A stretch of DNA of 64,000 nucleotides from a bacterium (GTDB lineage Bacteria > Zhuqueibacterota > Zhuqueibacteria > Residuimicrobiales > Krinioviventaceae): NCBI GenBank assembly GCA_963675755.2, contig CAXXMD010000002.1:768001-832000 (forward strand). The letters are read 5' to 3'. Below, piece by piece: positions 3,054 through 57,927 of the stretch; the first letter of the stretch is position 1, and the number at the start of each line of letters is the position of its first letter. The notes under the pieces were generated by a model. That model was not told where the DNA came from. It ran no database searches and saw nothing but the letters and a program-made list of their open reading frames with translations. Position numbers and translations under genes: made by a program.

Positions 3054-3056
3054 TTT

Positions 3057-3136
3057 ATCCGTTAGGGGTGGTCCCTAAGACCTGAGATTACACCCTAAGA
3101 ACCTGACCTGGTTAATACTAGCGTAGGGAAACGGTA
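3057..3136 (+). ncRNA. TPP riboswitch (THI box)
   Basis: GGGGTG...CTGAGA..TACACCC...GAACCTGA.CTGGTTAATACTAGCGTAGGGAA matches the TPP aptamer core; the P1 stem is ccgtt/aacgg. Confidence 0.93.
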
Positions 3137-3163
3137 AAACATTTTATCTTTTTAAAATGCTGG

Positions 3164-8135: not shown

Positions 8136-8159
8136 CCTAATCCCTTTCTATTACTACAG

Positions 8160-9350: not shown

Positions 9351-9428
9351 AAACACACCTTTGCATAAAAATACTATTATTATTGACTTACAATATACAA
9401 ATTCTTGTGTGTCTATCAAATAAAAATT

Positions 9429-9466
9429 AAAAAAAATCCTGTACCGCAATAACAGTACAGGATTTT
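9429..9466 (-). terminator. terminator of the PadR/NifX/Mrp operon
   Basis: Hairpin aaatcctgtac...gtacaggattt with an A-run on +. Confidence 0.7.
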
Positions 9467-9489
9467 CAATAAAAAATTTAAATTATAAA

Positions 9490-10716: not shown

Positions 10717-10733
10717 AATATTTTATCCCTGCT

Positions 10734-30290: not shown

Positions 30291-30319
30291 AATTTCTAAA
30301 CTAATGTATCAGTTCTGGT

Positions 30320-31666: not shown

Positions 31667-31668
31667 AA

Positions 31669-32835: not shown

Positions 32836-32841
32836 AAAAAA

Positions 32842-34605: not shown

Positions 34606-35117
34606 TACTTTTCCTTACCCTTGTCATGCAATTCCGAATCCTGAGCATTTATAAAATATTTGACCATGGTCACCTGGTTATTTTTTCCAGGATTGATATC
34701 ATAAACCACATCATCCATTAGTGTTTTCATTAAATAAATACCCAATCCACCAACCTTGAGCTCTGCAAGATATTGTTTTAAATCAGGAATTTTGATTGAT
34801 TTGGGATCGAATCCTTTACCATGATCAGTGACTACAAGCGTAAACTTTTGATAATCTACCTTGATAACAATATCCAGTGTGCTTTCTTTATTGTCTTTGG
34901 AATACGCATGTTTGATTACATTGGTGCAGGCTTCGTCACATGCAAGTTCAATCTTGTTCACTTCTTCAGCATCAAAACCAACCTTGTCGGCAACTTTGCC
35001 TACGAATCCTCTTATCAACTCCAAATTATCTGTCTGACTGGGAATTCGAAGAGTGTACTCTCCTTCCAGTTTTGGAGCAATTGGCTGTTGTTTTTTCTTT
35101 TCAGCAGTATTTGTCAT
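34605..35117 (-). CDS. rsbW: anti-sigma factor Ser kinase (RsbW/SpoIIAB type)
   Basis: EACTNVIKHAY, DHGKGFD, GGLGIYLM motifs. Confidence 0.88.
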   Translation of the reverse strand: MTNTAEKKKQQPIAPKLEGEYTLRIPSQTDNLELIRGFVGKVADKVGFDAEEVNKIELACDEACTNVIKHAYSKDNKESTLDIVIKVDYQKFTLVVTDHGKGFDPKSIKIPDLKQYLAELKVGGLGIYLMKTLMDDVVYDINPGKNNQVTMVKYFINAQDSELHDKGKEK

Positions 35118-35135
35118 AACATTTCAACCTGTTAT

Positions 35136-35483
35136 TTAACTGTTAAATTTTTCAATAGCTTCTTCTTCAGTATCAACAATATCATATAATGTAGGAAAAC
35201 CGAGAAGATCGAATACTCTGAATATTTTGGGTGTCATATCGGACATTTTAATATCACCATCATGATTTCGGATATTCTCAATAAAGCCCATAAACACGCC
35301 CAATCCCGCGCTACTGATATATGACAATTCTTTAAAATTGACTAGAATTTTAAATTGCTCTGTATCAATGATTTTTTGGATTGCACTTTCCAATTCAGGG
35401 GCAGTATGCGCGTCCAAAAAGCCACCGATATATAAAACAGCAATTCCTCCTTTTTCTTCTCGGTTAATTGTAAAATTTTCCAT
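35136..35483 (-). CDS. rsbV: STAS anti-sigma-factor antagonist (RsbV/SpoIIAA type)
   Basis: Start MENF after a GGAGG RBS; GFLDAHTAP, LSYISSAGLGV (phosphoacceptor Ser). Confidence 0.88.
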   Translation of the reverse strand: MENFTINREEKGGIAVLYIGGFLDAHTAPELESAIQKIIDTEQFKILVNFKELSYISSAGLGVFMGFIENIRNHDGDIKMSDMTPKIFRVFDLLGFPTLYDIVDTEEEAIEKFNS

Positions 35484-35523
35484 TAATTCCTCCTGAATCA
35501 ATTAATATTTTAGAGTATAGGTC

Positions 35524-37614: not shown

Positions 37615-37676
37615 ATCCGCTTTTTTGTTCTATACGTTGATACGAATAAGCATATAAATAGTTACAATTATGTATG

Positions 37677-41050: not shown

Positions 41051-42511
41051 TTATTCTTCAAATACCTGGGTTTTATATACCCAGAATTCTGCTCCATCTT
41101 TCCATGCATTTCGATCCAAGCCGGCTTTTCTGCAAAGACTTGACATTTCTTCATCAACAGTTTTCCAGCCAGCCTCAATAGGCACTTCGGGTAAATATGT
41201 TGCTCGTTTTCCATCCTTTATTAATATAATACCTTGTTTACCCATTTTAAATTCCGTGATTGAATTAATTTTATAGACATTACTCAAATAAACAGATATT
41301 TTGATGTGGATTTTATCAAATTCATCAGGCGTTAGCGGTGCAAACCGCGGATCTCCAAAGGCAGCAGATACAGCCATATGAGGTACAAGTTCATTCAAAG
41401 GACGATCTGATTCATGCTGCCCAATGCAGCCGCGTAACATTCCATCAATGGTTAATGTAACAAAAACACCACGCTTCTCTGTCATCTCATCAGTTTTGGG
41501 TTCAAAAGAAGTCAGTTTTCCCGTTCGCATATAACCCAAAATGCTCTCACGGGCTATTTTTAACAACTCTTTTTGGGTTTCCTGATTAATTGTATGGTAT
41601 TCGATTTTTCCCAAAGTGGATTTTGAAAAAACTATAGCACCATATCCTACAACATATCCTTCTTTAACTCCCATTACATCATTAGAATTGGTTCTAGCCT
41701 GCAAGGTTGCTTTATATTCTCCCATCTGCTGCAAAGCAACCTGCATGATAACTACGGGTGCACCTCCGCAGGCTTGAAATTTATCATTTAACAAACCTTC
41801 ACACAATCGTTTTGGCTTTAAATCCATAATCGCATCAAGTGTATTTTTGTCTGTTTTATTACATTCTTTATAAGATTGTCCATGATATAAATCTGTACTG
41901 GCAACGATTAACACATTTTTATTTTTAACAGTATTAAATATTGCATCCCCAATGGATTTGCATTGTTCCCAATTAAATCCACCTACCACAATGGGTACAA
42001 TAGGAGTTTTAGGAAAAAGTTTCTGAATAAAAGGTAATTGCACTTCTATTGCATGCTCTTCCCTGTGACCCAGGATAGAAAATTGAATGAACTCACTTTT
42101 TTCTACGATTTCATTGGCAACGGATTTGTCTATATTAACATTGCCTAATGGTGTTTCGTACATATCACCATTATATACAGTTGCTCCATAAAAGGGATCG
42201 CGATGACTGGGAGCCATTACGATTATAAAATCATAGGTGTTCCCTTTCAGGCACTTGTATGCCTGTGCAGCGGTTTGGGCAGAAAATCGATACCCTGCAT
42301 GTGGAACCATAATGGCATCAATTTCCCCATCCGGCTTTTGAGCAGGATCTCCCGATAACAATTCATCCAAAAATTCACTTAATTGTAATGGATCTTCAGG
42401 ATAAAAGCTACCGGCAACAGCAGATTTCCGTGTTATATCTGCAAATAAAAAATTTGAATAGAAAAAAAACAAGATTAGAATGAAAGAATAGACCTTTAGT
42501 AAGGTTTTCAT
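41051..42511 (-). CDS. amrB: AmmeMemoRadiSam protein B (MEMO1) fused to AMMECR1, with N-terminal signal peptide
   Basis: Hydrophobic signal ending LFA; AVAGSFYP, PHAGY, PSH, EHAIEVQLPF, STDLYH, CGG; then GVFVTL..LRGCIG, DPRF, YLPEV. Confidence 0.9.
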   Translation of the reverse strand: MKTLLKVYSFILILFFFYSNFLFADITRKSAVAGSFYPEDPLQLSEFLDELLSGDPAQKPDGEIDAIMVPHAGYRFSAQTAAQAYKCLKGNTYDFIIVMAPSHRDPFYGATVYNGDMYETPLGNVNIDKSVANEIVEKSEFIQFSILGHREEHAIEVQLPFIQKLFPKTPIVPIVVGGFNWEQCKSIGDAIFNTVKNKNVLIVASTDLYHGQSYKECNKTDKNTLDAIMDLKPKRLCEGLLNDKFQACGGAPVVIMQVALQQMGEYKATLQARTNSNDVMGVKEGYVVGYGAIVFSKSTLGKIEYHTINQETQKELLKIARESILGYMRTGKLTSFEPKTDEMTEKRGVFVTLTIDGMLRGCIGQHESDRPLNELVPHMAVSAAFGDPRFAPLTPDEFDKIHIKISVYLSNVYKINSITEFKMGKQGIILIKDGKRATYLPEVPIEAGWKTVDEEMSSLCRKAGLDRNAWKDGAEFWVYKTQVFEE

Positions 42512-44779: not shown

Positions 44780-47146
44780 TTATCTCAGAAAACGTTCAAC
44801 CAATTTTTTAAATCCGGTTTTGGTAAAATCCGCATCGGCAAAATAATCTGAAGCAAGCTGACTGTTATCCTGAGATGGATTTGCTTGTGGTTCAGGCTCA
44901 ATTTCAGGCGGTTCCGGAGGTTCTGGAATACTAGTGTCAAAAGCTGTTGTATTTTCAGGTGTAGTATTGTATTCAACATTAGCAAGATCATTAAATGTTG
45001 AACCATTTCCGCCTTCGTCTTCTATTTCTTCCTGATTATAATCCTGAATATTGTCATTAACTTCTGTTGGATCATTAAACACAGATTGTTGAACTGTCTG
45101 CACAACAGGTTGGTGTACTACAGGCTCAGTATTGTATGAATGTGAAGAACTGGATAATTTCTGAGGTTCTGCTTTTTGTACCAGTTGAGGAGCCTGAATC
45201 TGCTCTTTAGCTTGAACATACATGACACGGTTATCAATAGCTATTGCAATTTGATTTGCAAGTATTTCCAGGGTATGCAGGGTATCTTTATTTGGCATTC
45301 TGCAATCATTCGGATCATCAGCCATTAAAAATCCAATGATTTTCTCTTCTTTGGACTTTATGGGTACAATGACTACAGCCCAGTTTGGCCAGCCACCTTC
45401 ATAATACTCACCTTCTTCTGAACCATAATAAATGCGTTTTAAATGATCAAATACCGGTTCCTGATTCTGAACCAGATATGATTTGCCTTGTAGATAATCT
45501 TTGCGTAATAATTGACTGTATTCTTTGAGATTATAATTTAATTCCTTGATCTGAGCCAGTTTTATCTTGTCATCACATGCTACGGCTTTGGTTTCAAGCA
45601 TACCACTCTTTTTACTGATCAAGACAAGAGAAACAAGGTTGAAATCCAATGAAAATTTGACTGACCAGACAACTTCTTTGAGTAATTCACTCAAACTGTA
45701 ATACAATTTAAATACATTACTGTTAACCAGAATCTGTTTCATGCGACGGTTGCGACGTTCAAGTGTAGAAATACGATAGTAATTTTCAACCGTAACGGAA
45801 ACCAGCCTGCTGAATAATTCCAGATTGTAAAAAGTGGATTTTGTAGGTGTATTACCTTCACCCGGCTCGTCCAAAGATATATAACCAAAGGTATTGTTGT
45901 TTTTATCAGCAAGATTCAGGATAATCAGGTCACGTTTATGCCATTGTGCAATGGGCGATGTTTCCTGAGAATCATTTTTAACCAGTTCATTATTCAAGTG
46001 ACTTGCTAACTGGCGACGTTCTTTGTTGTGATAAATCACCTTAATGCGAGATTTATCTGCAAATACTTTATCAATAACACGCTGGGGAACTTCAATATTG
46101 TCTTTTGAGGAATTTTCTCGCGCAGAATAACCTACCATTGCCTGTTTTACATATGCATGCTTGCGCGGATCCAAAAGCGCAACGGTTGATCGTTTAAATC
46201 CAAAAACCTGGCATACCAATTCCGAAAGATTTTTTAACAAGACTTCAATAGATTCAGAATAACTACGATGAATGATATCAATTACTTCTGATATCATTTG
46301 TTTTTGATCAACAGTTTTTTGTACTACAAAGGTACCGGAAGATTTTACATGGACTTTGACAAGGTTTCCACGAAATCCAATGACATGATTTTTATCATTA
46401 TCGTCATAAATGAGAGAAATTTGTAATTTTGCAGGTATCTTTTCACCGGTTTTTGCAATAACATACACTTCAAATGACATTGCCGGTTTTTTAATTGCAA
46501 CATTGAGGATCTTGTTGAAAAAATCAGTATCATCAACAGATGCAAGTACATCATCGATAGTTAATTCCAGTAATTCAGCATTAGTATATCCTGCTACATC
46601 TTCAATATATTCATTAGCGGAAAGAAAACGGCGCTTACGGTCACAAACAAAATAACCAATTTCACCACTTTGTACATGCGGGATATCTGTTTCAAGTAAA
46701 TTTTTGGGTTCTTCAACTTCTATAATAGGCAGTTCATCATGAACCGGCATGGGTTCTGGCAAGGGTTCATCGGGATGGACTTTGAACTCGGCTGCTCGTT
46801 TGAGGCTTTCTGATAATGCAGAAAGATAGCCTTTCTTTTTGACAACAAATTCAAAAACACCCAAATTTTGCACATCCTGAAAAATCTGTTCATCATCTTC
46901 ATTTACAGTCAAGATGGTTGGATGAATACGACTGATCTTTTTAAGCGTTTCCGTAAAAGAATCATGATGTCCATTAGCCAGTTCACTGTCAATTAACAAA
47001 ATATCAAATTCTACATTCGTAAACTGTTCCTGCACTTCCTTTAAAGAAGTTGCTCCAATTGGATTATATTCATCATTTTGTACGCTTATGACCTGTCGGG
47101 TTGCTTCTACATATGAGGCATTCGGATGCGCTATTGATATTTTCAT
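44780..47146 (-). CDS. receiver-like-PAS-GAF-GAF sensory protein with no recognisable output domain
   Basis: Likely start MKISIAH at 47146; DILLID receiver-like segment; PAS (SANEYIEDVAGYTNAELL); two GAF domains (ending LEILANQIAIAIDN); acidic Pro/Gln tail. Confidence 0.75.
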   Translation of the reverse strand: MKISIAHPNASYVEATRQVISVQNDEYNPIGATSLKEVQEQFTNVEFDILLIDSELANGHHDSFTETLKKISRIHPTILTVNEDDEQIFQDVQNLGVFEFVVKKKGYLSALSESLKRAAEFKVHPDEPLPEPMPVHDELPIIEVEEPKNLLETDIPHVQSGEIGYFVCDRKRRFLSANEYIEDVAGYTNAELLELTIDDVLASVDDTDFFNKILNVAIKKPAMSFEVYVIAKTGEKIPAKLQISLIYDDNDKNHVIGFRGNLVKVHVKSSGTFVVQKTVDQKQMISEVIDIIHRSYSESIEVLLKNLSELVCQVFGFKRSTVALLDPRKHAYVKQAMVGYSARENSSKDNIEVPQRVIDKVFADKSRIKVIYHNKERRQLASHLNNELVKNDSQETSPIAQWHKRDLIILNLADKNNNTFGYISLDEPGEGNTPTKSTFYNLELFSRLVSVTVENYYRISTLERRNRRMKQILVNSNVFKLYYSLSELLKEVVWSVKFSLDFNLVSLVLISKKSGMLETKAVACDDKIKLAQIKELNYNLKEYSQLLRKDYLQGKSYLVQNQEPVFDHLKRIYYGSEEGEYYEGGWPNWAVVIVPIKSKEEKIIGFLMADDPNDCRMPNKDTLHTLEILANQIAIAIDNRVMYVQAKEQIQAPQLVQKAEPQKLSSSSHSYNTEPVVHQPVVQTVQQSVFNDPTEVNDNIQDYNQEEIEDEGGNGSTFNDLANVEYNTTPENTTAFDTSIPEPPEPPEIEPEPQANPSQDNSQLASDYFADADFTKTGFKKLVERFLR

Positions 47147-47466
47147 ATTACCTGCTACTCCAATATAATTCAGCAAAAAGCTCTGAAATTCACGAAACAA
47201 TTAACAAAAATTTGTACACATAATCAAGAAAATAGATAATAAATACTGTCGAAAAATGATGTGATTACTTTTTGCCACATTTAAAAGAAAAAATATACAA
47301 TTTTGGGTAATCGCAAATTACATTTTTGAAAAGCATTATTATCATCCATTTACTCATGTTGATTTTTATATACTTAGACATACAATTGTCTGGTTATATT
47401 TAAAACAAAATTAAATCCAACAAACATCCAATTTAAAGCAAAATCCAAGCCAAAAAGAGTATTGAC

Positions 47467-47501
47467 AAAAAAAAAGCCAGAGATTTTATAAACTCTGGCT
47501 T
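47467..47501 (-). terminator. terminator of the TrmB-led catabolic operon
   Basis: A9-gccagag-N10-ctctggc just past the small-subunit stop. Confidence 0.8.
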
Positions 47502-47515
47502 GTAATTTTCATTCA

Positions 47516-48001
47516 TTACTTTCGTAACCGGGATCGTGTATATTCAATTAATCCCCCTGCATCCATTACCATCTGACGTGTGCCGGACAGAGGCTGTATA
47601 TTAAATTCTTTACCAGTAGTCATGTTTAATACTTTATCACCAGAAATATCAAGTTCATGTCCATTTTCAGCATCAATATCTGGTACGGTTATGGTTTGTA
47701 ATCCTAAATTTACTGCATTTTGCAGAAAAATTCTGGCATAGCTTTTGGCAATTACAATCAAATCATGGCCTTTTAAACAGGATGCTGCCTGTTCTCGTGA
47801 TGAACCGCAACCAAAATTTTCTCCACCAACAATAATACTTTTAGCAGTTAACGTTCCACTGTTTAATAAAGTATTAAACGTTTTATCATCTGCAAAGGCA
47901 TATTCAGGAGTCTCTGTAGGTAATACTGTGGCCATAAATCTTCCGGGATATATAGTATCTGTTGATATATCATTGCCAAGTTTATAAACAACTTTGGACA
48001 T
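47516..48001 (-). CDS. homoaconitase/isopropylmalate isomerase small subunit (HacB/LysU-like)
   Basis: DISTDTIYPG, NFGCGSSREQA, AKSYARIF..NAVNLG, AGGL motifs. Confidence 0.88.
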   Translation of the reverse strand: MSKVVYKLGNDISTDTIYPGRFMATVLPTETPEYAFADDKTFNTLLNSGTLTAKSIIVGGENFGCGSSREQAASCLKGHDLIVIAKSYARIFLQNAVNLGLQTITVPDIDAENGHELDISGDKVLNMTTGKEFNIQPLSGTRQMVMDAGGLIEYTRSRLRK

Positions 48002-48002
48002 A

Positions 48003-49295
48003 TTAACTCCTTTCCTGACGTGGATCAGTTATTTTACCGGTTATTGCTGATGCGGCAGCCGTTGCAGGTGAACACAAGTACACTTCTGCATTGGGATTTC
48101 CCATTCTGCCTTTAAAGTTGCGATTTGTAGTTGCTAGAGCTACCTCTCCATCAGCAAGTGCTCCCTGATGCACTCCCAGGCAGCATCCACATCCCGGATT
48201 CATGATTACAGCGCCACTTTGTGCAAGCATTTCAAGATAACCTTCCTCCAATGCTTTTCGATATATCTTGCTGGATGCTGGAAAAACCAGCATTCTAACA
48301 TCATTGGCTACTTTTTTGCCCTTTAATATCTTTGCTGCTATTTCTAAATCCTCTAATCTGCCATTTGTACAAGAACCGATTACAATCTGGTCCAGCTTCA
48401 CATTATTAACATTACTAATAGGTTCAACATTATCAACAGTATGGGGACAGGCAATCTGAGGCTCAAGATTGGTTACATCTATATCCACAATCTGCTCGTA
48501 AACAGCATCCTGGTCCGGTGTAACAAAATTCAACTCCCCGGTCACACCCGCTTCCTCACGTAGATACCGTTCTGTTTCCTGATCGGCAGGTACAATACCT
48601 GCGCTGGCACCGGCTTCGACTGACATGTTTGAAATTGTTAATCTGCCTGATACATTCATATTTGAAATAACACTACCATGGTATTCTAAAACTTTGAATG
48701 TTGCACCTTTGGCAGTAATCTTGCCAATTAGATATAATATAATATCTTTGGCAGCTAATGTTTCAGGCATAACCCCATTAATATTGACTTTAATAGTGCC
48801 CGGGACTTCAAGATTCAATAATGTACCCAAACACCACACACTTGCCATTTCCGTTGCTCCAATTCCCATTGAAAAAGCACCTAATGCACCATGGCTGGTC
48901 GTATGCGAATCTGTACCCAAAACTACGTAACCGGGACGAACATAGCCATATTCGGGTAATATTTGATGGCAAATGCCACCTACATCACCCCGGATTTCAT
49001 GAAATTTAGAAACTCCCTGTTCTTTAAGAAAATTTCTAATTTTCTTTTGGTTATTTGCAGTCTTGGAACTTTCTGCGGGCACACGGTGGTCAAATATAAT
49101 TGCAATTTTATCAGGGTCCCAAACTTTTGGAGACAAATCTGTTCCTTTATAAACTTCAAAGAATTGGTTAATAACCAAAGCAGCATTTTCATGAGACATG
49201 GCAAGATCAACAGAAGGCTCAATGATATCACCGGGTTTTACACTTGAAACATTTGCTGCTCTGGCAAGTATTTTTTCTGCAACAGTCATTGCCAT
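48003..49295 (-). CDS. homoaconitase/isopropylmalate isomerase large subunit (HacA/LysT-like)
   Basis: EKILARA, FDH, GICHQ, GTDSHT, GSCTNGR, PGCGCC, TTNRNFKGRMG, SPATAAASA motifs. Confidence 0.9.
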   Translation of the reverse strand: MAMTVAEKILARAANVSSVKPGDIIEPSVDLAMSHENAALVINQFFEVYKGTDLSPKVWDPDKIAIIFDHRVPAESSKTANNQKKIRNFLKEQGVSKFHEIRGDVGGICHQILPEYGYVRPGYVVLGTDSHTTSHGALGAFSMGIGATEMASVWCLGTLLNLEVPGTIKVNINGVMPETLAAKDIILYLIGKITAKGATFKVLEYHGSVISNMNVSGRLTISNMSVEAGASAGIVPADQETERYLREEAGVTGELNFVTPDQDAVYEQIVDIDVTNLEPQIACPHTVDNVEPISNVNNVKLDQIVIGSCTNGRLEDLEIAAKILKGKKVANDVRMLVFPASSKIYRKALEEGYLEMLAQSGAVIMNPGCGCCLGVHQGALADGEVALATTNRNFKGRMGNPNAEVYLCSPATAAASAITGKITDPRQERS

Positions 49296-49308
49296 TGTTT
49301 TTCTCCAA

Positions 49309-50502
49309 TTAAATTATACCTTCTTTATGGAAATTATCAATTTCCTCTCTTGAATACCCCACTTGGCTGAGAAGTTCATGAGTATGTTGGGATAATCTTG
49401 GAGGCGGATTGTCGATATTTGCCGGCGTTTTACTAAATTTAGCTGTGAGATTGAACAGCTTTAACTCACCCAATTCATCATCTGGTACTGATGCTAATGT
49501 TTGACGATGCTGGACTTGATCTGCTGACAATGCATCTTTCAAGGCTAATATATCCCCCGATGGTACTCCTTGAGCATTTAAAAGATCAACCCATTCAACA
49601 GTATCTTTATCAATCAATTTAGCTTCAAGCAATGGAGTAAGAATTCTTCGATTCTTTTTTCTTGTATCTCGCTCCTTAAATCGTGGATCCTCCTGTAATT
49701 CGGGGATTCCCAGAACCTCTGTTACACTGCACCATTGTTCCTGTTTATTTGCGGCAATATTAATATATCCGTCTCTGGTTTTAAATGTTCCTGAAGGTGC
49801 AGCTGTAAAATTATCATTCCCCAACAAGGTAGGAGCTTGACCTCCAATCAACAGATTTGCCGCAACCCATCCCATTAATGGCATTATTGAATCCAGCAAA
49901 GCAATGTCAATAAATTGTCCTTCGCCTGTTCTTTCCCGGTAATACAGGGCAGCCATAATAGCAAAAGCAGCATTCAAACCACCAACGGTATCACATACCG
50001 GGAAACCACATCGCAAAGGATTCAGAGTTTCATCACCATTTACAGACATAACTCCGCTTAGACCCTGAATGATTTGGTCATATGCCGGTTTTAATGCATC
50101 AGGACCGGTTTGTCCGAAACCTGAAATAGCGCAATACACAATTTTAGGATTAATAGATTGAAGTGTATCATAATCAAGACCCAACCGCTTCATAACACCG
50201 GGTCTGAAATTTTCAACAACAACATCTGCTGTTTTTACGAGTTTTTTGAATATCTGTTTGGCATTATCATCCTTAAGATTCAGCGTTAAAGATTTTTTAT
50301 TAGCATTTTGAGCCAAAAAACTGGTGCCCATAAGCTTCTTGTTCAATTCAGGCATACATCCCAATTTCCTGGCCAAATCACCATCTTGAGGGTTTTCAAT
50401 CTTGATAACTTCTGCTCCCAATAATGCCAGGTGTAATGTACCAAACGGGCCAGACAAAACGTTTGTCAAGTCCAATACCCTTGTACCTTTTAATAGACTC
50501 AT
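49309..50502 (-). CDS. family III (CaiB/BaiF) CoA-transferase
   Basis: RVLDLT..LSGP, GAEVIKIE, NANKKS, ENFRPG, SGFGQTGP, AYD; catalytic Asp in VCDTVGG. Confidence 0.92.
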   Translation of the reverse strand: MSLLKGTRVLDLTNVLSGPFGTLHLALLGAEVIKIENPQDGDLARKLGCMPELNKKLMGTSFLAQNANKKSLTLNLKDDNAKQIFKKLVKTADVVVENFRPGVMKRLGLDYDTLQSINPKIVYCAISGFGQTGPDALKPAYDQIIQGLSGVMSVNGDETLNPLRCGFPVCDTVGGLNAAFAIMAALYYRERTGEGQFIDIALLDSIMPLMGWVAANLLIGGQAPTLLGNDNFTAAPSGTFKTRDGYINIAANKQEQWCSVTEVLGIPELQEDPRFKERDTRKKNRRILTPLLEAKLIDKDTVEWVDLLNAQGVPSGDILALKDALSADQVQHRQTLASVPDDELGELKLFNLTAKFSKTPANIDNPPPRLSQHTHELLSQVGYSREEIDNFHKEGII

Positions 50503-50505
50503 GCT

Positions 50506-51426
50506 TTAATGTTCTCCTTTAAGCACTTCAGGAAACCCTGTTTTATACAATCTACCAGACAAATCTCGTTCAAGTGTTTCAGCAATACCATTTACAAACG
50601 TTACCAACTTTTCAATATCCGGAAGATCACTTTTTCCCATTCGTTTGAACAGATACACCAGATCCTCGGTACAGACATTTCCCGAACTTGTCTTTGTAAA
50701 AGGACAACCACCAAGTCCGCCAAACGCGGTTTCAAAATGCCTTACACCAGATTGAAAAGCAGCATAACAATTTGCTATTCCAGCTCCAAATGTATCGTGA
50801 AAATGGCAGGCACCTTCAATAGCGGAATCTAGTTCATATATTGACGTATAATAATCCTGTACCTGGTCAGGATGTGCATAGCCAGCTGTATCAGCAAGAC
50901 TGATGAAACGAAAACCGGAATCGAGATATGTTTTTACAATATTCATAACCGATTCTTTGGCAATTTTACCCTCAAATCCGCATCCAAAAGCTGATTGAAC
51001 AGATAACTGGACTTTTATACCGTGCTGTTGTGCTTGTTTTGCCATTGCAATAATACGCTTTAAAGCTTCATTGGTATCCATCCCTGTATTTTTCTGACTG
51101 TGTGTTTGACTCGCGGATACACCCATACAAAACAGTTCAACGCCACAAGCTAAACCTCTGTCAAGTCCCCGTTCATTCAAAACCAGACCACTAAAAACGA
51201 TATCCTGAGAATTTAAATCAGAATTATGGACCAATTTGAACAATTCATCAGTATTAGCCATTTGAGGTACTTTGACAGGGTGCACAAACGAACCTAGTTG
51301 TATGGTTTTGATACCGGCTTTAACTAATTTTTTGACCCACATCAATTTTGTCTCAGTTGGCATTGTTTTTTGTTCAATTTGAAGTCCATCACGAAGACCT
51401 ACTTCATGTATAATCACACTTTGCAT
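50506..51426 (-). CDS. HMG-CoA lyase family 3-hydroxyacyl-CoA lyase
   Basis: EVGLRDGLQ, SFVHP..VPQMA, LADTAG, HFHDT, GGLGGCPF, GNVCTED; no regulatory domain. Confidence 0.88.
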   Translation of the reverse strand: MQSVIIHEVGLRDGLQIEQKTMPTETKLMWVKKLVKAGIKTIQLGSFVHPVKVPQMANTDELFKLVHNSDLNSQDIVFSGLVLNERGLDRGLACGVELFCMGVSASQTHSQKNTGMDTNEALKRIIAMAKQAQQHGIKVQLSVQSAFGCGFEGKIAKESVMNIVKTYLDSGFRFISLADTAGYAHPDQVQDYYTSIYELDSAIEGACHFHDTFGAGIANCYAAFQSGVRHFETAFGGLGGCPFTKTSSGNVCTEDLVYLFKRMGKSDLPDIEKLVTFVNGIAETLERDLSGRLYKTGFPEVLKGEH

Positions 51427-52532
51427 GCAATTGCCTCTGCCATTTCAGTTGTTGAACTGTTTCCACCCATATCATATGTTCTCACTTTACCTTCTCGAAT
51501 GACATCTGCTACAGCTTTTTCAAGTTTATCTGCCTTTTCCGTTTCACCAAGGTAATCCAGCATTAATTTAGCTGCTAATAACATTGCAATAGGATTCACC
51601 TTGTCCATGCCTGCATATTTGGGTGCGCTACCATGAGTTGGCTCAAAAACAGCATAATTATCACCGATATTGCCACTTGAAGCGAATCCCAATCCACCAA
51701 CCAGTTGCGCTGCAAGATCCGATATAATATCGCCAAACATATTTTCAGCGACCAGCACACCATAGTTTTCAGGATTTTTCACAAGCCACATACACATAGC
51801 ATCGATATTGGTTTCCCACAATTCAATATCCGGATAGTTTTTGGCAACCTCACGAGCACAACGCGTCATTAAACCACCCGTTTCACGCAATACATTGGGT
51901 TTTTCAACCAATGTAACTGTTTTATAACCAAATTTTTGGGCATATTTAAAAGCCTCATTCACAATATTAGTACATCCTTCTTTGGTTACAATACGTGTGG
52001 AAACTGCAATCTCATCGAGTGGAACATTTTCAAACTTTTTCATCTTGGCATTGTTTTGCAAAAGTGTATTGAAAACCTGTTCTGGAAGTGGATGAAACTC
52101 TACACCGGCATAAAGACCTTGTGTGTTTTCACGGAAAACAACCAGGTCAATCCCCTCTTTGTGATTCAATGGATTACCATTATATGCTTTACAGGGACGT
52201 AAATTGGTTCTTAAATTGAACATTTGACGTAATTTCACGATTGGTGAAAAATAATCAAGACCTTTGGATTGTAAATGTAGTGCAAGTTCTTTTGCAGCTT
52301 CGTCTTTAGGTTTTGAAGTTATTGCTCCAAATAGAGCTGCATCTGTTTGTTTTAATATATCTATTGTGCGGTCAGGCAATGGATTTCCTTCGGTTTTCCA
52401 AAATTCCCAACCTATATCACCATGGATGTATTCCGCATCAAGCTCAAGCTTGTTCAGGACGAGTTTGGTCGCATTCATCACATCAATACCAACTCCATCT
52501 CCTGGCAGCCATGCAATTTTATATTTAGCCAT
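51414..52532 (-). CDS. beta-decarboxylating dehydrogenase, homoisocitrate-dehydrogenase-like
   Basis: PGDGVG, LFGAITS, YFSPIVKLR, NLRP, RENT, KPNV, NMFGDIISD, EPTHGSAP motifs. Confidence 0.85.
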   Translation of the reverse strand: MAKYKIAWLPGDGVGIDVMNATKLVLNKLELDAEYIHGDIGWEFWKTEGNPLPDRTIDILKQTDAALFGAITSKPKDEAAKELALHLQSKGLDYFSPIVKLRQMFNLRTNLRPCKAYNGNPLNHKEGIDLVVFRENTQGLYAGVEFHPLPEQVFNTLLQNNAKMKKFENVPLDEIAVSTRIVTKEGCTNIVNEAFKYAQKFGYKTVTLVEKPNVLRETGGLMTRCAREVAKNYPDIELWETNIDAMCMWLVKNPENYGVLVAENMFGDIISDLAAQLVGGLGFASSGNIGDNYAVFEPTHGSAPKYAGMDKVNPIAMLLAAKLMLDYLGETEKADKLEKAVADVIREGKVRTYDMGGNSSTTEMAEAIACKV

Positions 52533-52552
52533 TTGATTTTCCTTAATTTCTG

Positions 52553-53884
52553 TTACATTTCGTCAAAGACCTGTTTTAATATGTCCAAACAGCAGTCAAT
52601 GTGATCTTTTTCAACAACCAATGCTGGTGCAAATCGAATGGAATTGGGTCCACAACCCAAAATGATAAGTCCTTTATAAAAAGCTTTATCTAGTATTTCA
52701 TTTCGTTTTTGGGCATCTGGTTCAAATGATTCGGTATCCTTAATGATCTCAATACCAACCATTAATCCTTTTCCTCTGACATCACCTATAAATGGATATT
52801 CAGCAGCCATTTCATCGAGTCGGGATATGAGATATTCACCCATTTGGGCTGCATTTTCAATTAATTCAGCTTCAAGTAATTCTATAGTCTTTAATGCAGC
52901 CGCACAGGATACGGGATTACCACCAAAAGTTGAAGCATGTGATCCATATGGCCAATTCATAACATCACTTTTTGCAATAATAGCTCCCAGGGGCATGCCG
53001 GAAGCAATTCCTTTGGCAACACAGATAATATCTGGTTCTAAACCATAATGTTCGCTGGCAAAAAACTTGCCTGTTCGTCCCATACCGGCCTGAATTTCAT
53101 CGGCTACAATGAGAAAACCATGTTTTTCAGACAGTTTTTTCAAGCTATCCACATATTCTTTAGGCGGGACAATATATCCACCTTCACCCTGAATAGGTTC
53201 AAAAAATACAGCAGCAACTTCTTCTGGTGGGACCGTTTTTTCAAAAATTGTATTTTCAAGATATTTAACACATTCAAAATGACAGGAACCGTACTTTTGT
53301 CCAAATATACAACGGTAACAATAGGGATAAGGAATATGAGTTACATCTGGCAGCAAGGGAGAAAATCCGGCTTTTTGTACAACTTTACTTCCGGTAAGTG
53401 ACAATGCACCATAAGTACGACCATGAAATGCACCCGTATAAGCCAACAAACGTGTGCGTTTTGTATTATAACGTGCAAGCTTAATAGCAGCTTCAACCGC
53501 TTCTGCACCGGAATTTGTAAAAAACACGCGTTTCCCTGAATTTCCGGGGGCGTTTTCAACCAGCTTTTTAGCCAATTCGGATTGAACTGTATAATAAAAA
53601 TCAGTTCCTGACATATGTAACAGGTTATCTGCCTGATCTTTGATAGCTTGAACGACTTGAGGATGACAATGCCCTGTTGAACAAACAGCAATACCACTGC
53701 AAAAATCGAGAAACTCGTTACCATCTATATCTTCTAAAATTACACCCCTACCCTTTTCAGCAACACAGGGAAAATCACGAGTATAAGAAGGAGAAACATA
53801 TTGATTATCAGTTTCAATAACTTTTTGAGCTTTGGGGCCCGGTAAATCTGTCTTGATATTTGGATATGGATATGGATTGGTCAT
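52553..53884 (-). CDS. class III PLP omega-aminotransferase (ornithine/lysine terminal aminotransferase-like)
   Basis: Start MTNP at 53884; LPGPKA, NSGAEAVEAA, FHGRT, EPIQGEGG, DEIQAGMGRTG, AKG, STFGGNP motifs. Confidence 0.88.
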   Translation of the reverse strand: MTNPYPYPNIKTDLPGPKAQKVIETDNQYVSPSYTRDFPCVAEKGRGVILEDIDGNEFLDFCSGIAVCSTGHCHPQVVQAIKDQADNLLHMSGTDFYYTVQSELAKKLVENAPGNSGKRVFFTNSGAEAVEAAIKLARYNTKRTRLLAYTGAFHGRTYGALSLTGSKVVQKAGFSPLLPDVTHIPYPYCYRCIFGQKYGSCHFECVKYLENTIFEKTVPPEEVAAVFFEPIQGEGGYIVPPKEYVDSLKKLSEKHGFLIVADEIQAGMGRTGKFFASEHYGLEPDIICVAKGIASGMPLGAIIAKSDVMNWPYGSHASTFGGNPVSCAAALKTIELLEAELIENAAQMGEYLISRLDEMAAEYPFIGDVRGKGLMVGIEIIKDTESFEPDAQKRNEILDKAFYKGLIILGCGPNSIRFAPALVVEKDHIDCCLDILKQVFDEM

Positions 53885-53897
53885 AGCAATGCCTTTC

Positions 53898-55442
53898 TCA
53901 ATCAAATTGAATACCCTGCGCAAGAACCGTCTCTTGGCTCCAGTTAATTGTGTTTGTTTGTCTCCGCATATAGCCTTTCCAGGCATCTGATCCGCTCTCA
54001 CGACCACCACCCGTCTCTTTTTCTCCACCAAAAGCGAGTCCAATTTCAGCACCACTTGTTCCCAGGTTTACATTGGCTATTCCACAATCAGAACCGGCAT
54101 AACTAAGGAATGTCTCTGACTCTATCAGATCGTTGGTAAAGATCGATGAACTAAGCCCCTGTGGAACATCATTTTGAATTTCTATTGCATTTTCTATAGT
54201 TCCATCATATTTCAATAGATATAAAATGGGTGCAAATGTTTCTTCCTGAACAATATCCATTGAATTTTCAACCTCAGCAATAGCTGGTTTTACATAACAC
54301 CCACCCGGATATTCACTCTCATTCAAGAGCTCTCCACCATAAATAAGCGTACCGCCCTGTTCACGAATCTGTTGAATTGCTTTTTGCATTGTTTCAACAG
54401 CGGTGGTATCTACCAATGGTCCCATGAGAATATTTTCATCCATAGGATTTCCAATGGTTATACGACTATAATAATCCAACAATAGTGTTTTAAATTTTTC
54501 ATATATGGATTCAGCAACAATAACCCTTCTGGTAGATGTACACCGTTGGCCGGCAGTTCCAACAGCTCCAAATAATACATTTTTAGCTGCAAGTTCCAGA
54601 TCTGCCTTGGGAGTTACTATTATTGCGTTATTACCACCCAATTCAAGTATTGTCTTACCCAGGCGCTCACCAACTGTTTTGGATATATGCTTTCCGAGAC
54701 GAGTAGATCCGGTATAGCTTACTAGATTTACACGTTTATCATAATTTAACAGATCACCAATCTCTGACCCTTTACCTGTTATCAGTGTTGCAATACCTTT
54801 GGGGGCATCATTAGCCTCAAGTACTGCTTCAAGTATTTTTTGACATGCTATGGCAGTCAAGGGGACAGGAGATGCGGGTTTCCATACACATACATCGCCA
54901 CAAACAAGTGCTATGGAAAGATTCCAGCTCCATACAGCAACAGGGAAATTAAAAGCGGAAATGATACCTACAACACCAAGTGGATGCCATTGCTCATACA
55001 TACGATGTTTGGGTCGTTCACTGTGAGTTTGTACTCCATACAGCATTCGTGACTGACCACAGGCATAATCACAAATATCAATCATTTCCTGGACTTCTCC
55101 CCAGCCCTCTTGAATGGATTTACCCATTTCCAGAGTTACCAGTTTGCCTAGTGCGTCTTTTTTCTCACGAAGCGCAACACCCAATTGTCTGACAATTTCT
55201 CCTCTTTTAGGAGCTGGTACTTGTTTCCATTGAGCAAAAGATTGTTGTGCGGAGCGGATAACAATATCATAATCTTCTTTACTTGCTTGTTTTACTTGAG
55301 CAATTCGTTCACCAGTTATGGGTGACAAAACATCAACAACAGTACCGCTTCCAAACCATTTTTCTCCATCAAAAACACCGTCATTAACATCTTTTAAATC
55401 CAGAGCTTTTAATACTTCGGTAATTTCATCCCGGATTTTCAT
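53898..55442 (-). CDS. ALDH7/antiquitin-type alpha-aminoadipate-semialdehyde (piperideine-6-carboxylate) dehydrogenase
   Basis: PAPKRGEIVRQ, GEVQEMIDICD, SERP.HRM.EQWHPLG..GIISAFNFPVAVW.WN, LELGGNNA, GTAGQRCT, GGGRESGSDAWK.YMRRQT: ALDH7 signature. Confidence 0.9.
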   Translation of the reverse strand: MKIRDEITEVLKALDLKDVNDGVFDGEKWFGSGTVVDVLSPITGERIAQVKQASKEDYDIVIRSAQQSFAQWKQVPAPKRGEIVRQLGVALREKKDALGKLVTLEMGKSIQEGWGEVQEMIDICDYACGQSRMLYGVQTHSERPKHRMYEQWHPLGVVGIISAFNFPVAVWSWNLSIALVCGDVCVWKPASPVPLTAIACQKILEAVLEANDAPKGIATLITGKGSEIGDLLNYDKRVNLVSYTGSTRLGKHISKTVGERLGKTILELGGNNAIIVTPKADLELAAKNVLFGAVGTAGQRCTSTRRVIVAESIYEKFKTLLLDYYSRITIGNPMDENILMGPLVDTTAVETMQKAIQQIREQGGTLIYGGELLNESEYPGGCYVKPAIAEVENSMDIVQEETFAPILYLLKYDGTIENAIEIQNDVPQGLSSSIFTNDLIESETFLSYAGSDCGIANVNLGTSGAEIGLAFGGEKETGGGRESGSDAWKGYMRRQTNTINWSQETVLAQGIQFD

Positions 55443-55452
55443 ACCAACTCCT

Positions 55453-56241
55453 TTATTTTTGATAAATATTTCTCAGAATATGGAAATCATTACCAAAAAT
55501 TGATTTTGCCTGCTCTTCCAGGCGATTTATCAATTTCCAGCTATAAATATCATGTTTGATAAAATCTTTTGCCACACCTACCAGACTTTCATTTGCTGTT
55601 AGTACGCCAATATTGCTTTTTTGATCAGAAATAATGCCCTGTAACAAATAAGAATTATCTACAACCAGTGTAAATTCACGTCCCCCTTTTTCTTTTATCT
55701 TTTCTTCTTCCAAAAGATGATGATAAACCGTTCCAAAATCTAACTCAAGGTTTCCATACTGTACAATCGCAATATTTTTATCCTGCTTTTCTTTTAGCTT
55801 TTCCTGTAAAAGAATCAATTCTTCTTCCCAGCAGAATAAAAGAATCTCATTTTGACAATTTAGTATCAATTCATTGGCTTTATTAATTAAATCTTCCCGA
55901 GAATTAATATCCCAAATATAGTGTGAAGAAATTCCCTTAGCTTCAGGTAGATGCTTTTTCAAAAGATTGATTGATGCAGTAGTATCGTCCTGAAATCGTT
56001 TTAATAATATTTCAATATCTATAGGAATATATTTAACAGGATCTGTTTGTATTGGAGAAATGACAGATTTTTCCAACAGCTTGTTGATTACTTCATAAAC
56101 TTTTGATGGTGGGATCCCGGAACGCTTGGCTAATTCATATCCCGTAATAGGATTTTTTTTAACCAGTGCAACATATGCTTTTGATTCATACTGTGAAAAT
56201 CCAAATCTTGCTAGATTTTCCATAATAATTGATATTGGCAA
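55453..56241 (-). CDS. TrmB-family transcriptional regulator
   Basis: GFSQYESKAY, GYELAKRSGIPPSKVYEV..KL wHTH plus C-terminal effector domain; TTG start 6 nt after AAGGAG. Confidence 0.88.
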   Translation of the reverse strand: MPISIIMENLARFGFSQYESKAYVALVKKNPITGYELAKRSGIPPSKVYEVINKLLEKSVISPIQTDPVKYIPIDIEILLKRFQDDTTASINLLKKHLPEAKGISSHYIWDINSREDLINKANELILNCQNEILLFCWEEELILLQEKLKEKQDKNIAIVQYGNLELDFGTVYHHLLEEEKIKEKGGREFTLVVDNSYLLQGIISDQKSNIGVLTANESLVGVAKDFIKHDIYSWKLINRLEEQAKSIFGNDFHILRNIYQK

Positions 56242-56255
56242 TTCGAACTCCTTAT

Positions 56256-56273
56256 TAACTACCGTTGTAGTTA
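56256..56273. promoter_or_regulatory. putative TrmB operator
   Basis: Inverted repeat TAACTAC-N4-GTAGTTA between the -10 element and the RBS. Confidence 0.7.
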
Positions 56274-56301
56274 TTATATTAAAAGTTCATAGAATTGTCA
56301 A
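56273..56301 (-). promoter_or_regulatory. consensus sigma70 promoter of the TrmB operon
   Basis: Minus-strand TTGACA (56301-56296), N17, TATAAT (56278-56273). Confidence 0.85.
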
Positions 56302-56330
56302 GAAAAATTTATTGTATTTTTAAAATAGAT

Positions 56331-56362
56331 AAAAAAAGGCCGCTATTTAATAATAACGGCCT
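56331..56362 (-). terminator. terminator after the Gfo/Idh/MocA gene
   Basis: A-run plus aggccg...cggcct hairpin; insulates the TrmB operon. Confidence 0.7.
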
Positions 56363-56378
56363 GAAAATGTAGTGTGGA

Positions 56379-57692
56379 TCAGATATTCTTTGGAACTACA
56401 AAAGGTTCGCGATAATCGCGGGTGAGCATTTCATCGGCTTCGGGATCATTAACAAATCTTTCACTGGAGGGATCAAAATCCAACTGACGTCCCAGGCGAT
56501 AAGAGATATTTCCCAAATGTGCAAGGCCTGATGAAAGATGAGCAGTTTCAACCGGTGCATTCAAAATAGATTTATCGTGAGCACGAACAGCTTTAATAAA
56601 GTTAGCAAAATGATCGCCACCCTCTTTTTTACTTGGGCCAGGTTTTACATCTCTACCTTCACCAATATAGGTTTCATATGTATCATAACCTTTAATTAGC
56701 ATATAGCCTTTAGAACCATAGAAAAGGTTACCTGTACCTACACCATCTTCTTTATTAGTAAACCAGTGTCTAACTTCAACTTCCATAAATTTGTTTTCGT
56801 CAGGCCAATAGTATTGTGAGCTAAGAATTTCAGGTGTTTCTTTGCAATCATCCCACAAAAATTTTCCACCCATGGATGATATCTTGCTTGGCAACCCTAC
56901 ATCTAAACCCCACATACTCATATCAGTTTCGTGAACACCCTGGTTACCAATATCACCATTACCAAAATCCCAATGCCAGTGCCAATTGTAATGAACAATA
57001 TTACGTGAGAATGGGCGTTCCTGAGCAGGTCCTAACCAAAGATCATAATCTAAACCATCAGGTACCGGTTCAAAGCCTTTATCACCAATATCAGGGCGCC
57101 AACGATATATAGTTGCTCTGGACATATAAACATCACCTATCAAACCATCACGCAAATGTTGAACGGCTTCCTGCAAAGCTACAGAACTACGTAATTGAAC
57201 ACCATGTTGAACAATACGATCATATTTTGCTGCAGCTTCAACCATTTTTCGGCCTTCATAAATATTATGAGAACCAGGTTTTTCTACATAAACATCTTTG
57301 CCAGCCTGGCAAGCCCATATAGTAGCAAGTGAATGCCAATGGTTACAGGTTGCTATGCTCACAACATCAATATCTTTATCTTCGTAAACTTTGCGTAAAT
57401 CCTGTTCCAGGGTAACCTTTTTATCATATTCTTCTTTGAAATCTTTGGCTCTTTGATCAAGTACTTTTTGGTCAGGATCGCATAGCGTAACAACTTCTAC
57501 ACCATCCAGGTTCATATACCCTTTAATATGGCTTTTACCTCTTCCATTTACTCCTAAAACAGCTACATTGATTTTATCATTTGCTCCTTTTGCAGCTTTA
57601 GGTAAAATCATAGGGGCAGAAATTGCTGCAGCTGCTGTAATACCTGCAGAACTTTTCATAAAATCACGACGGCTAACCTTTTCTTTTTCCAT
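56379..57692 (-). CDS. Tat-exported Gfo/Idh/MocA oxidoreductase
   Basis: SRRDFMK leader; GVNGRG, NHWH, GKDVYVEKP, WLGPA, GNQGVH motifs. Confidence 0.9.
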   Translation of the reverse strand: MEKEKVSRRDFMKSSAGITAAAAISAPMILPKAAKGANDKINVAVLGVNGRGKSHIKGYMNLDGVEVVTLCDPDQKVLDQRAKDFKEEYDKKVTLEQDLRKVYEDKDIDVVSIATCNHWHSLATIWACQAGKDVYVEKPGSHNIYEGRKMVEAAAKYDRIVQHGVQLRSSVALQEAVQHLRDGLIGDVYMSRATIYRWRPDIGDKGFEPVPDGLDYDLWLGPAQERPFSRNIVHYNWHWHWDFGNGDIGNQGVHETDMSMWGLDVGLPSKISSMGGKFLWDDCKETPEILSSQYYWPDENKFMEVEVRHWFTNKEDGVGTGNLFYGSKGYMLIKGYDTYETYIGEGRDVKPGPSKKEGGDHFANFIKAVRAHDKSILNAPVETAHLSSGLAHLGNISYRLGRQLDFDPSSERFVNDPEADEMLTRDYREPFVVPKNI

Positions 57693-57927
57693 GGTCAAAA
57701 CCTCAATTTAATAATTATTTATGATTTAATTTATTAATTGAACCGGTTTAATTTTTATAAATTATTATAATGTTTTAATTAGAGATTGTCAATAGTTTTA
57801 TACAGATTTACACTTTATTACAAAATGTAACATTTTTTAATAAAAGATGAACAGTTCTTCATTAAATAATTTGCATTTTAGTACTTAAATCTTTATCATA
57901 TAAAGCTGTACTTGTAATGTTCTCTGG

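Follow-up and report, generated by a model that had tools for sequence, protein, structure and literature searches.

A TrmB-headed operon proposed to degrade lysine by running the first half of aminoadipate biosynthesis backwards

We investigated an eight-gene operon in a 64,000-nucleotide stretch of bacterial DNA (hereafter the window: positions 768,001 to 832,000 of contig CAXXMD010000002.1, assembly GCA_963675755.2, phylum Zhuqueibacterota). Its eight open reading frames (ORFs), all co-directional on the minus strand at 47516–56241, encode a TrmB-family regulator, an aldehyde dehydrogenase (ALDH) of type 7, an omega-aminotransferase and five distal proteins: a beta-decarboxylating dehydrogenase, a lyase of the 3-hydroxy-3-methylglutaryl-CoA (HMG-CoA) lyase family, a family III CoA-transferase and the two subunits of an aconitase-family dehydratase. 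With moderate confidence, we read the operon as TrmB-controlled lysine catabolism in which the first half of aminoadipate biosynthesis would run backwards, one CO2 would be fixed and homocitrate would be cleaved. The support for this pathway is comparative, and we infer the substrates and the reaction direction of the five distal enzymes from sequence. The same reading was put forward in the initial annotation of the window, and it is now supported by the conserved neighbourhood, by alternative lysine gene sets beside the distal genes and by a CitDEF-like displacement of the cleavage enzymes.

Judging from the enzyme families, the omega-aminotransferase would move the epsilon-amino group of lysine to 2-oxoglutarate, yielding 2-aminoadipate semialdehyde/L-piperideine-6-carboxylate (P6C), which the ALDH7 enzyme would oxidize irreversibly to 2-aminoadipate; a transaminase encoded elsewhere would then give 2-oxoadipate. 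The homoisocitrate-dehydrogenase-like enzyme would reductively carboxylate 2-oxoadipate to homoisocitrate, the LeuCD-like dehydratase would convert homoisocitrate through cis-homoaconitate to homocitrate, the CoA-transferase would form homocitryl-CoA, and the HMG-CoA-lyase-like enzyme would split homocitryl-CoA into acetyl-CoA and 2-oxoglutarate. In a variant from sister genera, a CitDEF-like cleavage of the acyl carrier protein (ACP) type would turn homocitrate into acetate and 2-oxoglutarate. The component enzyme families are known, but the pathway logic would be new: no description of the pathway, of homocitryl-CoA or of a homocitrate lyase was found in open-access full texts and bioRxiv, in agreement with the initial annotation, which had known of none, and the route appears not to have been described before.

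Conservation, lysine gene neighbours and the exchanged cleavage step

The host genome (G000) and 40 relatives were searched (41 genomes), and a lyase orthologue (at least 58% identity) was found in 6 of them. The complete eight-gene order is kept in three (G001, G014 and G017); G005, where the contig begins inside the ALDH gene, shows seven genes, and the contig of G031 has room for the dehydrogenase and the lyase only. A wider scan with one genome per species returned at least 550 candidate loci for the five distal genes, of which the best 80 were kept. All 80 contain the lyase, 78 the transferase, 67 LeuC, 64 the dehydrogenase, 63 LeuD and 53 all five genes. Most of the 27 incomplete loci stop at a contig edge, and about ten do not (L032, L033, L038, L042, L045, L053, L058, L066, L076 and L088). 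The record labels include Ignavibacteria, Anaerolineae/Chloroflexota, Acidobacteriota, Elusimicrobia, Armatimonadetes and others; conservation of the neighbourhood, proposed as a check when the operon was first described, was thus found across many phyla for the distal five genes. Since no other gene cluster accompanies them in more than 9 of the 80 loci, the five distal genes are a self-standing module, and the TrmB–ALDH–aminotransferase part belongs to the window's own lineage.

Genes leading from lysine to aminoadipate adjoin the module in 12 of the 80 loci, in four different forms that are spread over three phylum-level groups. Three loci (L016–L018) are of the window's own type, with an aminotransferase and an ALDH7 gene beside the module. 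At an Elusimicrobia-labelled locus (L055), a complete saccharopine pathway stands directly before lyase–transferase–LeuC–LeuD–dehydrogenase: its ALDH7 protein scores 739.5 bits against the P6C dehydrogenase (P6CDH) cut-off of 730, its lysine-ketoglutarate reductase (LKR) gene matches the corresponding part of human AASS (E = 2.5e-79), and its saccharopine dehydrogenase (SDH) gene matches Lys9/AASS (E = 4e-96). The LeuC and LeuD proteins of this locus (10400–12232) are 51% and 40% identical to those of the window, and the small-subunit loop is a different one, YPGRFLNITDK, like that of Pyrococcus horikoshii 1v7l; given this divergence, the same enzyme set has been assembled there from different parts. 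At L037, the module is followed by genes for a D-amino-acid-dehydrogenase (DadA)-like protein, a protein of the ornithine-cyclodeaminase (OCD)/piperideine-2-carboxylate (P2C)-reductase family, a SoxB-like oxidase and ALDH7, which is the gene content of the pipecolate route of Pseudomonas; a SoxB-like gene and ALDH7 precede the module at L024, and ALDH7 alone, on the opposite strand, lies at L046. In five Chloroflexota loci (L034, L036, L047, L068 and L079), a 427-aa Sacchrp_dh protein adjoins the module, with PH1688, presumably an L-lysine 6-dehydrogenase, as its best solved relative (E = 4.5e-29). Saccharopine dehydrogenase was the top Pfam family among the 129 same-strand neighbours of the module.

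The DISPLACEMENT of the last step was seen in operons of sister genera, which end in a diverged CitDEF-like citrate-lyase set and not in the lyase and CoA-transferase. In G010, a member of the host genome's family without a lyase orthologue, the order is TrmB, a GxxExxY protein, P6CDH, aminotransferase, AksF2-like dehydrogenase, HDIG, a fused LeuCD, LeuC2, LeuD2, a CitD–CitE fusion and CitF (L113, 1435–14821). The same full order occurs in G003 (L114, 2291–14200), and G011 and G022 hold the parts that fit their contigs. The variant operon thus has two aconitase-family dehydratases, one of them a LeuC–LeuD fusion; the aminotransferase gene of G010 is broken up into two ORFs that overlap, suggestive of a frameshift or a misassembly. 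Neither CitE (246.1 bits; cut-off 443.4) nor CitF (472.3; cut-off 501.45) reaches its citrate-lyase equivalog, and the set is best described, from its sequence, as a putative diverged paralogue of citrate lyase. The operon type of CitF (72–100% identity) is found in 5 of the 41 genomes (G010, G003, G011, G018 and G022), and ordinary CitF, 48–54% identical to it, in 23; no CitF of any kind was found in the 6 carriers of the HMG-CoA-lyase-type lyase. Two non-homologous cleavage systems therefore hold the same place in otherwise equivalent lysine operons. Both types cleave a 3-hydroxy-3-carboxy acid to yield an acetyl unit together with a 2-oxoacid, and their interchange is, in our view, the strongest single argument that the last step would be the cleavage of a citrate-like tricarboxylate.

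The linkage could also be fortuitous, with the operon joining two unrelated units, one that converts lysine to 2-aminoadipate and an HMG- or leucine-type lyase/transferase unit with spare LeuBCD paralogues. The module does stand alone in most loci, but its linkage with lysine genes recurs independently: the upstream enzymes differ from case to case, and the variant operon has another cleavage system. The junctions of the window's operon are, in addition, tight or overlapping; we regard two unrelated units as highly improbable.

Operon signals and proteins

The whole operon spans 56301–47467 of the window. Consecutive genes are separated by gaps of 10, 13 and 20 nt, a 13-nt overlap, and then gaps of 3, 13 and 1 nt. 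A sigma-70-type promoter, TTGACA-17-TATAAT (56273–56301, minus strand), matches the consensus at 12 of 12 positions and is the sole such site among 40 promoter-like sites in 47100–56500; shuffled sequence gave 32.1 ± 5.1 promoter-like sites, so that only the perfect match is notable. Between the −10 box and the ribosome-binding site lies the palindrome ACTAC-N4-GTAGT (56258–56271), a candidate TrmB operator. It occurs once in the window (0.01 expected) and recurs in the orthologous operons of G001, G014 and G017, where it lies 17–20 nt before the TrmB start, with one additional, unrelated match (L092) among 118 loci. Downstream, an intrinsic terminator (47467–47501, minus strand) consists of a 9-bp stem, a 10-nt loop and U9 (−13.6 kcal/mol, z = −4.9); none of 200 shuffles equalled its stability, and a consensus terminator scan limited to loops of up to 8 nt missed it for that reason. 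The upstream gene has its own terminator at 56362–56337. The insulated operon of eight named families that had been described at the outset, with its promoter, operator, tight junctions and terminator, is confirmed.

No riboswitch was found at the operon or in seven module loci. Elsewhere in the window, a thiamine pyrophosphate (TPP) riboswitch (RF00059, 73.5 bits; 3054–3146, plus strand) lies directly 5′ of a TonB-dependent receptor gene (3210–5627). The operon is flanked by genes for an 806-aa receiver-PAS-GAF protein (44780–47200, minus strand) and a twin-arginine (TAT)-signal GFO/IDH/MocA oxidoreductase of the glycoside 3-dehydrogenase type (56379–57698, minus strand), neither of which is kept beside the operon in relatives. 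The window also holds, within 12 kb, four paralogous genes for SpoIIE/PP2C-type phosphatases that have HAMP or GAF sensor domains (28296–40061, minus strand; at 28296–30290, 32842–34605, 35524–37614 and 37677–40061), and a gene for a fused Memo-like and AMMECR1 protein of 486 aa (41051–42511, minus strand).

Gene families were assigned by Pfam and NCBIfam profile searches. The first gene (55453–56241) encodes a TrmB-family transcription regulator of 262 aa with a TTG start (PF01978, 70.2 bits; cut-off 25.6). The second (53898–55442, 514 aa) encodes an ALDH7-type P6C/2-aminoadipate-semialdehyde dehydrogenase, which scores 781.1 bits in NF050084, above the curated equivalog cut-off of 730; its closest CHARACTERISED relatives are human ALDH7A1 structures (E = 2e-162). 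The third product is a class III omega-aminotransferase, proposed to be a lysine epsilon-aminotransferase (PF00202, 425.8 bits; NF004426, 645.8 bits, cut-off 552). Its ORF extends over 52553–54055, and a reading from the first GTG overlaps the ALDH gene; because relatives align only from residues 38–62 onward, the true start is likely M58 at 53884, which gives a protein of 443 aa (52553–53884). Its best solved relative is the archaeal enzyme 7vno (E = 1.6e-129), which is probably P. horikoshii PH1423. A table in PMC9986279 gives the archaeal ornithine/Lys omega-aminotransferases PH1423 and TK2101 as also taking L-Lys. A lysine-aminotransferase model was not seen among the best 25 of the 69 NCBIfam families matched.

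The five module genes, all presently auto-named as leucine-biosynthesis or HMG-CoA-lyase genes, begin with the beta-decarboxylating dehydrogenase (51414–52532, 372 aa; PF00180 (Iso_dh), 303 bits), a proposed homoisocitrate dehydrogenase (HICDH)/2-oxoadipate reductive carboxylase whose best solved relatives are the Thermus HICDHs 3asj and 1x0l. The lyase (50506–51426, 306 aa), a proposed homocitryl-CoA lyase, belongs to subfamily NF004283 (255.6 bits, above the cut-off of 246), and its solved relatives are the HMG-CoA lyases 6nds and 1ydo (E ~5e-54). Residues R12-D13, H208, H210, C241 and N250 are invariant in the 6 orthologues; the Arg-Asp, His-x-His and Cys residues presumably have the catalytic roles that we assume from human HMGCL. 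The family III (CaiB/BaiF) CoA-transferase (49309–50502, 397 aa), a proposed acyl-CoA:homocitrate CoA-transferase, matches PF02515 (CoA_transf_3) over its full length (405.5 bits, profile positions 1–366 of 366), with succinate-hydroxymethylglutarate CoA-transferase 9br7 as its best solved relative (E = 5e-79); it reaches no NCBIfam equivalog cut-off, the best being succinate-glutarate CoA-transferase (298.7 against 750). The LeuC-like large subunit of the dehydratase, a proposed homoaconitase (48003–49295, 430 aa), scores 528.2 bits in TIGR01343 (hacA_fam), above 385.7. The LeuD-like small subunit (47516–48001, 161 aa) scores 109 bits in TIGR02087 (cut-off 108.95), and its best solved relatives, 3vba and 2pkp, are the isopropylmalate isomerase and homoaconitase small subunits of Methanocaldococcus jannaschii.

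We compared the substrate loops of these enzymes with those of their solved relatives. All 59 module dehydrogenases have Val at the position of the substrate-loop residue Arg85 of Thermus HICDH, followed by Arg or Lys. Miyazaki and co-workers reportedly observed that the Thermus R85V mutant loses isocitrate activity and keeps homoisocitrate activity, so the Val does not exclude an HICDH function. The small-subunit loop YPGR[F/Y]MATVLP is kept in 57 of 58 orthologues. Overall, the specificity motifs appear ambiguous and not diagnostic of the substrate.

These motifs bear on a further alternative, that the module shortens or lengthens some other 2-oxoacid (2-oxoisocaproate via isopropylmalate, or 2-oxobutyrate via (R)-citramalate, as Sct/Ccl of Chloroflexus would) and that the lysine linkage is secondary. 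The loop of the dehydrogenase has a hydrophobic I-V where Thermus isopropylmalate dehydrogenase (IPMDH) has L-L, the Arg of methanogen homoaconitase is missing from the small-subunit loop, the pairing of a family III CoA-transferase with an HMG-CoA-lyase-like lyase resembles that reported for the (R)-citramalate system of Chloroflexus, and Ignavibacteriales carry the module without lysine genes (see below). Conversely, the dehydrogenase loop, Y[R/F]SPIV[R/K], also has one or two conserved Arg/Lys residues, the variant operon has a CitDEF-like tricarboxylate lyase in place of the cleavage pair, and the module is neighboured by four lysine-to-aminoadipate gene sets across three phylum-level groups. 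Moreover, a canonical LeuA-like synthase, LeuB and a LeuC-like dehydratase are present in G000 and G044 anyway, and LeuA-like genes show no complementarity with the module in Ignavibacteriales, where they occur in 1 of 81 genomes. We therefore consider another 2-oxoacid substrate improbable.

Host metabolism and the module without lysine genes

Besides the operon, the host genome encodes AcnA, isocitrate dehydrogenase (ICDH), citrate synthase, canonical LeuC, LeuB and LeuA-like genes. All five variant genomes have an AcnA-like match besides the operon dehydratases; G010 and G003 also show a clear canonical LeuC-like match, and G011 and G018 a partial one. By elimination, the operon enzymes would serve a third substrate series, for which the homocitrate series is the obvious candidate given the link to 2-aminoadipate.

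The host genome also contains a complete diaminopimelate (DAP) lysine-biosynthesis cluster of the DapL type (dapB, dapA, dapF, DapL and lysA-like), and LysX was found in none of the five genomes searched; the separate lysine biosynthesis route that the initial annotation had proposed to look for is thus present. The aldehyde dehydrogenase step is irreversible. Together, these observations indicate that the operon is not biosynthetic, and lysine biosynthesis of the alpha-aminoadipate (AAA) type was rejected on the LysX result and the DAP cluster of G000. They also bear on the possibility that the module runs forwards, as an energy-conserving elongation of 2-oxoglutarate and acetyl-CoA to 2-oxoadipate for biosynthesis. 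In its favour, every reaction of the module could in principle go either way, and it is in biosynthesis that these enzyme families are best known. However, the module shares its transcript with the gene for an aldehyde dehydrogenase that makes 2-aminoadipate irreversibly, LysX is absent from those five genomes while G000 has the DAP pathway, and the citrate-lyase-type enzymes of the variant operon are cleavage enzymes, so we give a forward direction hardly any credence.

Known exits from 2-oxoadipate were looked for as well. HglS was found in none of the 41 genomes. The only acyl-CoA dehydrogenase domain of G000, encoded beside fabF, has its best match in the acryloyl-CoA-reductase type, and G010 and G003 have no such domain. 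In the initial annotation, the route was proposed to bypass 2-oxoadipate and glutaryl-CoA dehydrogenases; no clear glutaryl-CoA dehydrogenase was found in the host genome, and with HglS also missing, a known exit from 2-oxoadipate was not found. Because P6CDH occurs in 37 of the 41 genomes, its phyletic link to the module is uninformative in this sample; the solitary P6CDH gene of the non-carrier G004 has unrelated neighbours.

The module was also followed in a sample of 81 genomes labelled as Ignavibacteriales, the order that holds G041 (tallies include G106, which is flagged as unpublished), and the lyase was found in 29 of them. Several observations from these and other carriers, and from the proteins themselves, weigh against the lysine reading. 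P6CDH was found in none of the 81 genomes (E ≤ 1e-120), Sacchrp_dh_C was not enriched in carriers (3 of 29, against 5 of 52 non-carriers), and among five carriers from five phyla, P6CDH was above the cut-off in G045 only; on these counts, the module commonly works without a known source of 2-aminoadipate. G043 and G045 lack Iso_dh and aconitase homologues outside the module, which there could serve citrate/isocitrate chemistry. No locus examined contains a linked 2-aminoadipate transaminase. The dehydrogenase stays below the NCBIfam HICDH equivalog cut-offs (best models AksF2_Meth, 345.9 against 540, and AksF_Meth, 288.3 against 500), and its loop shows the hydrophobic I-V. Both dehydratase subunits score under the NCBIfam homoaconitase equivalog cut-offs, the large one with 504.2 bits in HacA_Meth (NF040615), below 550, and the small-subunit loop reads FMAT, as against YLRT in methanogen homoaconitase (2pkp), YLVY in isopropylmalate isomerase (3vba) and YNLT in 1v7l. 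Finally, no precedent was found for physiological reductive carboxylation by HICDH, nor for homocitryl-CoA as a metabolite.

As the module occurs in many genomes without a recognizable lysine-to-aminoadipate enzyme, it is not exclusively a lysine module, and it may be broader than lysine catabolism. A bolder generalization, which we regard as doubtful, is that the five-gene set is a general and possibly iterative module for reverse 2-oxoacid elongation, a CO2-incorporating and thioester-conserving chain shortening that would be common among uncultured bacteria from many phyla. 2-Oxoadipate would be shortened to 2-oxoglutarate, and perhaps onward to oxaloacetate, or the module would handle other 2-oxoacids; it would have been recruited to lysine catabolism at least three times, and its cleavage step would have been invented twice, as a CoA-based HMG-CoA-lyase type and as an ACP-based, CitDEF-type homocitrate lyase.

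Two other roles in Ignavibacteriales were unsupported. A leucine-biosynthesis variant, with the lyase and transferase standing in for LeuA, would imply complementarity, which was not seen: the single genome with LeuA-like genes is a non-carrier. It is also disfavoured by the LeuA-like genes, LeuB and LeuC that G000 has of its own. Replacement in the tricarboxylic acid (TCA) cycle found no support either, citrate synthase being present in 76 of the 81 genomes, including 25 of the 29 carriers. In addition, some Ignavibacteriales carriers have one or two further HMG-CoA-lyase-like genes together with a family I (ScoA/ScoB-type) CoA-transferase (L111 in G060, 7113–10498; L112 in G120, 6989–8725); with the LeuA-like genes of G085 left aside, extra matches of the lyase type (E ≤ 1e-25) occur in 10 of the 29 lyase carriers and in none of the 52 non-carriers.

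Another alternative is that the module works on citrate and isocitrate, interconverting 2-oxoglutarate with oxaloacetate and acetyl-CoA, while 2-aminoadipate meets its fate elsewhere. The module would then supply the 2-oxoglutarate acceptor used in lysine deamination or reductively dispose of the glutamate/2-oxoglutarate produced. It mostly stands alone, as would be expected if its substrates were all central metabolites, and it lacks lysine genes in Ignavibacteriales; G043 and G045 have no further aconitase or Iso_dh homologue for this chemistry, the last genes of the variant operon have citrate lyase subunits as their best NCBIfam matches, and Thermus HICDH reportedly uses isocitrate too. 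However, dedicated paralogues for citrate would be redundant in G000, G041, G042, G044 and the variant genomes, which keep an AcnA-like enzyme, and the first four also have a further Iso_dh homologue. Citrate synthase is present in 25 of the 29 Ignavibacteriales carriers, so that the distributions are not complementary, and CitE and CitF of the variant operon fall under the citrate-lyase cut-offs, CitF having about 50% identity with the ordinary type found in relatives. The Val at the Arg85 position, taken with the mutagenesis said to have been done in Thermus, argues against isocitrate as well, and citrate chemistry would leave 2-aminoadipate a dead end in an operon that produces it. We thus find this alternative distinctly improbable, and prefer the homocitrate route for the window's operon.

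Relation to known systems

If the homocitrate route is true, it would be a new finish to lysine catabolism, oxygen-independent and redox-balanced on paper, for which 2-oxoadipate dehydrogenase, glutaryl-CoA dehydrogenase and HglS would all be dispensable. It would mean that nature runs the chemistry of 2-oxoacid chain elongation in reverse, with net CO2 incorporation, and it would predict two new activities, one of a homocitryl-CoA lyase together with the CoA-transferase that serves it, the other of a homocitrate lyase of the ACP type. It would also change the genome-based reading of amino-acid turnover in many uncultured lineages of several phyla, and the enzymes are of interest for engineering pathways to C6 dicarboxylates.

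The proposed intermediates and the dehydratase and dehydrogenase families are the same as in the first half of alpha-aminoadipate biosynthesis (Thermus, fungi and archaea; Aks elongation in methanogens). In the operon, however, the direction would be reversed, and the irreversible synthase would be replaced by a CoA-transferase and lyase or by a CitDEF-like complex; its proteins miss the equivalog cut-offs, and its genes sit with catabolic lysine genes and not with LysWXZYJK (0 of 5 genomes). The cleavage pair recalls Chloroflexus aurantiacus, in which a succinyl-CoA:(R)-citramalate CoA-transferase and an (R)-citramalyl-CoA lyase are said to cleave a 3-hydroxy-3-carboxy acid via its CoA ester. 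There, too, the gene for a family III CoA-transferase adjoins that for an HMG-CoA-lyase-family lyase, a likeness in gene pairing, whereas the pair of the operon has a dehydratase and a beta-decarboxylating dehydrogenase as companions, joined by lysine genes in several lineages, and its proposed substrate is the C7 tricarboxylate homocitrate.

The proposed sequence of reductive carboxylation, aconitase-type isomerization and cleavage to an acetyl unit and a 2-oxoacid shorter by one carbon also follows the logic of CitDEF, of the reversed oxidative TCA cycle and of ATP-citrate lyase. The variant operon even uses true CitDEF homologues, yet its CitE and CitF lie below the citrate-lyase cut-offs; the proposed substrate is one methylene longer than citrate, and the role would be amino-acid catabolism and not carbon fixation or citrate fermentation. 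With known lysine catabolism, through 2-oxoadipate dehydrogenase and glutaryl-CoA or through HglS, the proposed route shares the upstream steps to 2-aminoadipate and 2-oxoadipate. The HglS route is described as taking 2-oxoadipate to D-2-hydroxyglutarate (10.1101/2020.01.30.927905). The end product of the proposed route, as of the HglS route, would be 2-oxoglutarate, but unlike the known fates of 2-oxoadipate, it would need no O2 and would incorporate one CO2 instead of releasing CO2.

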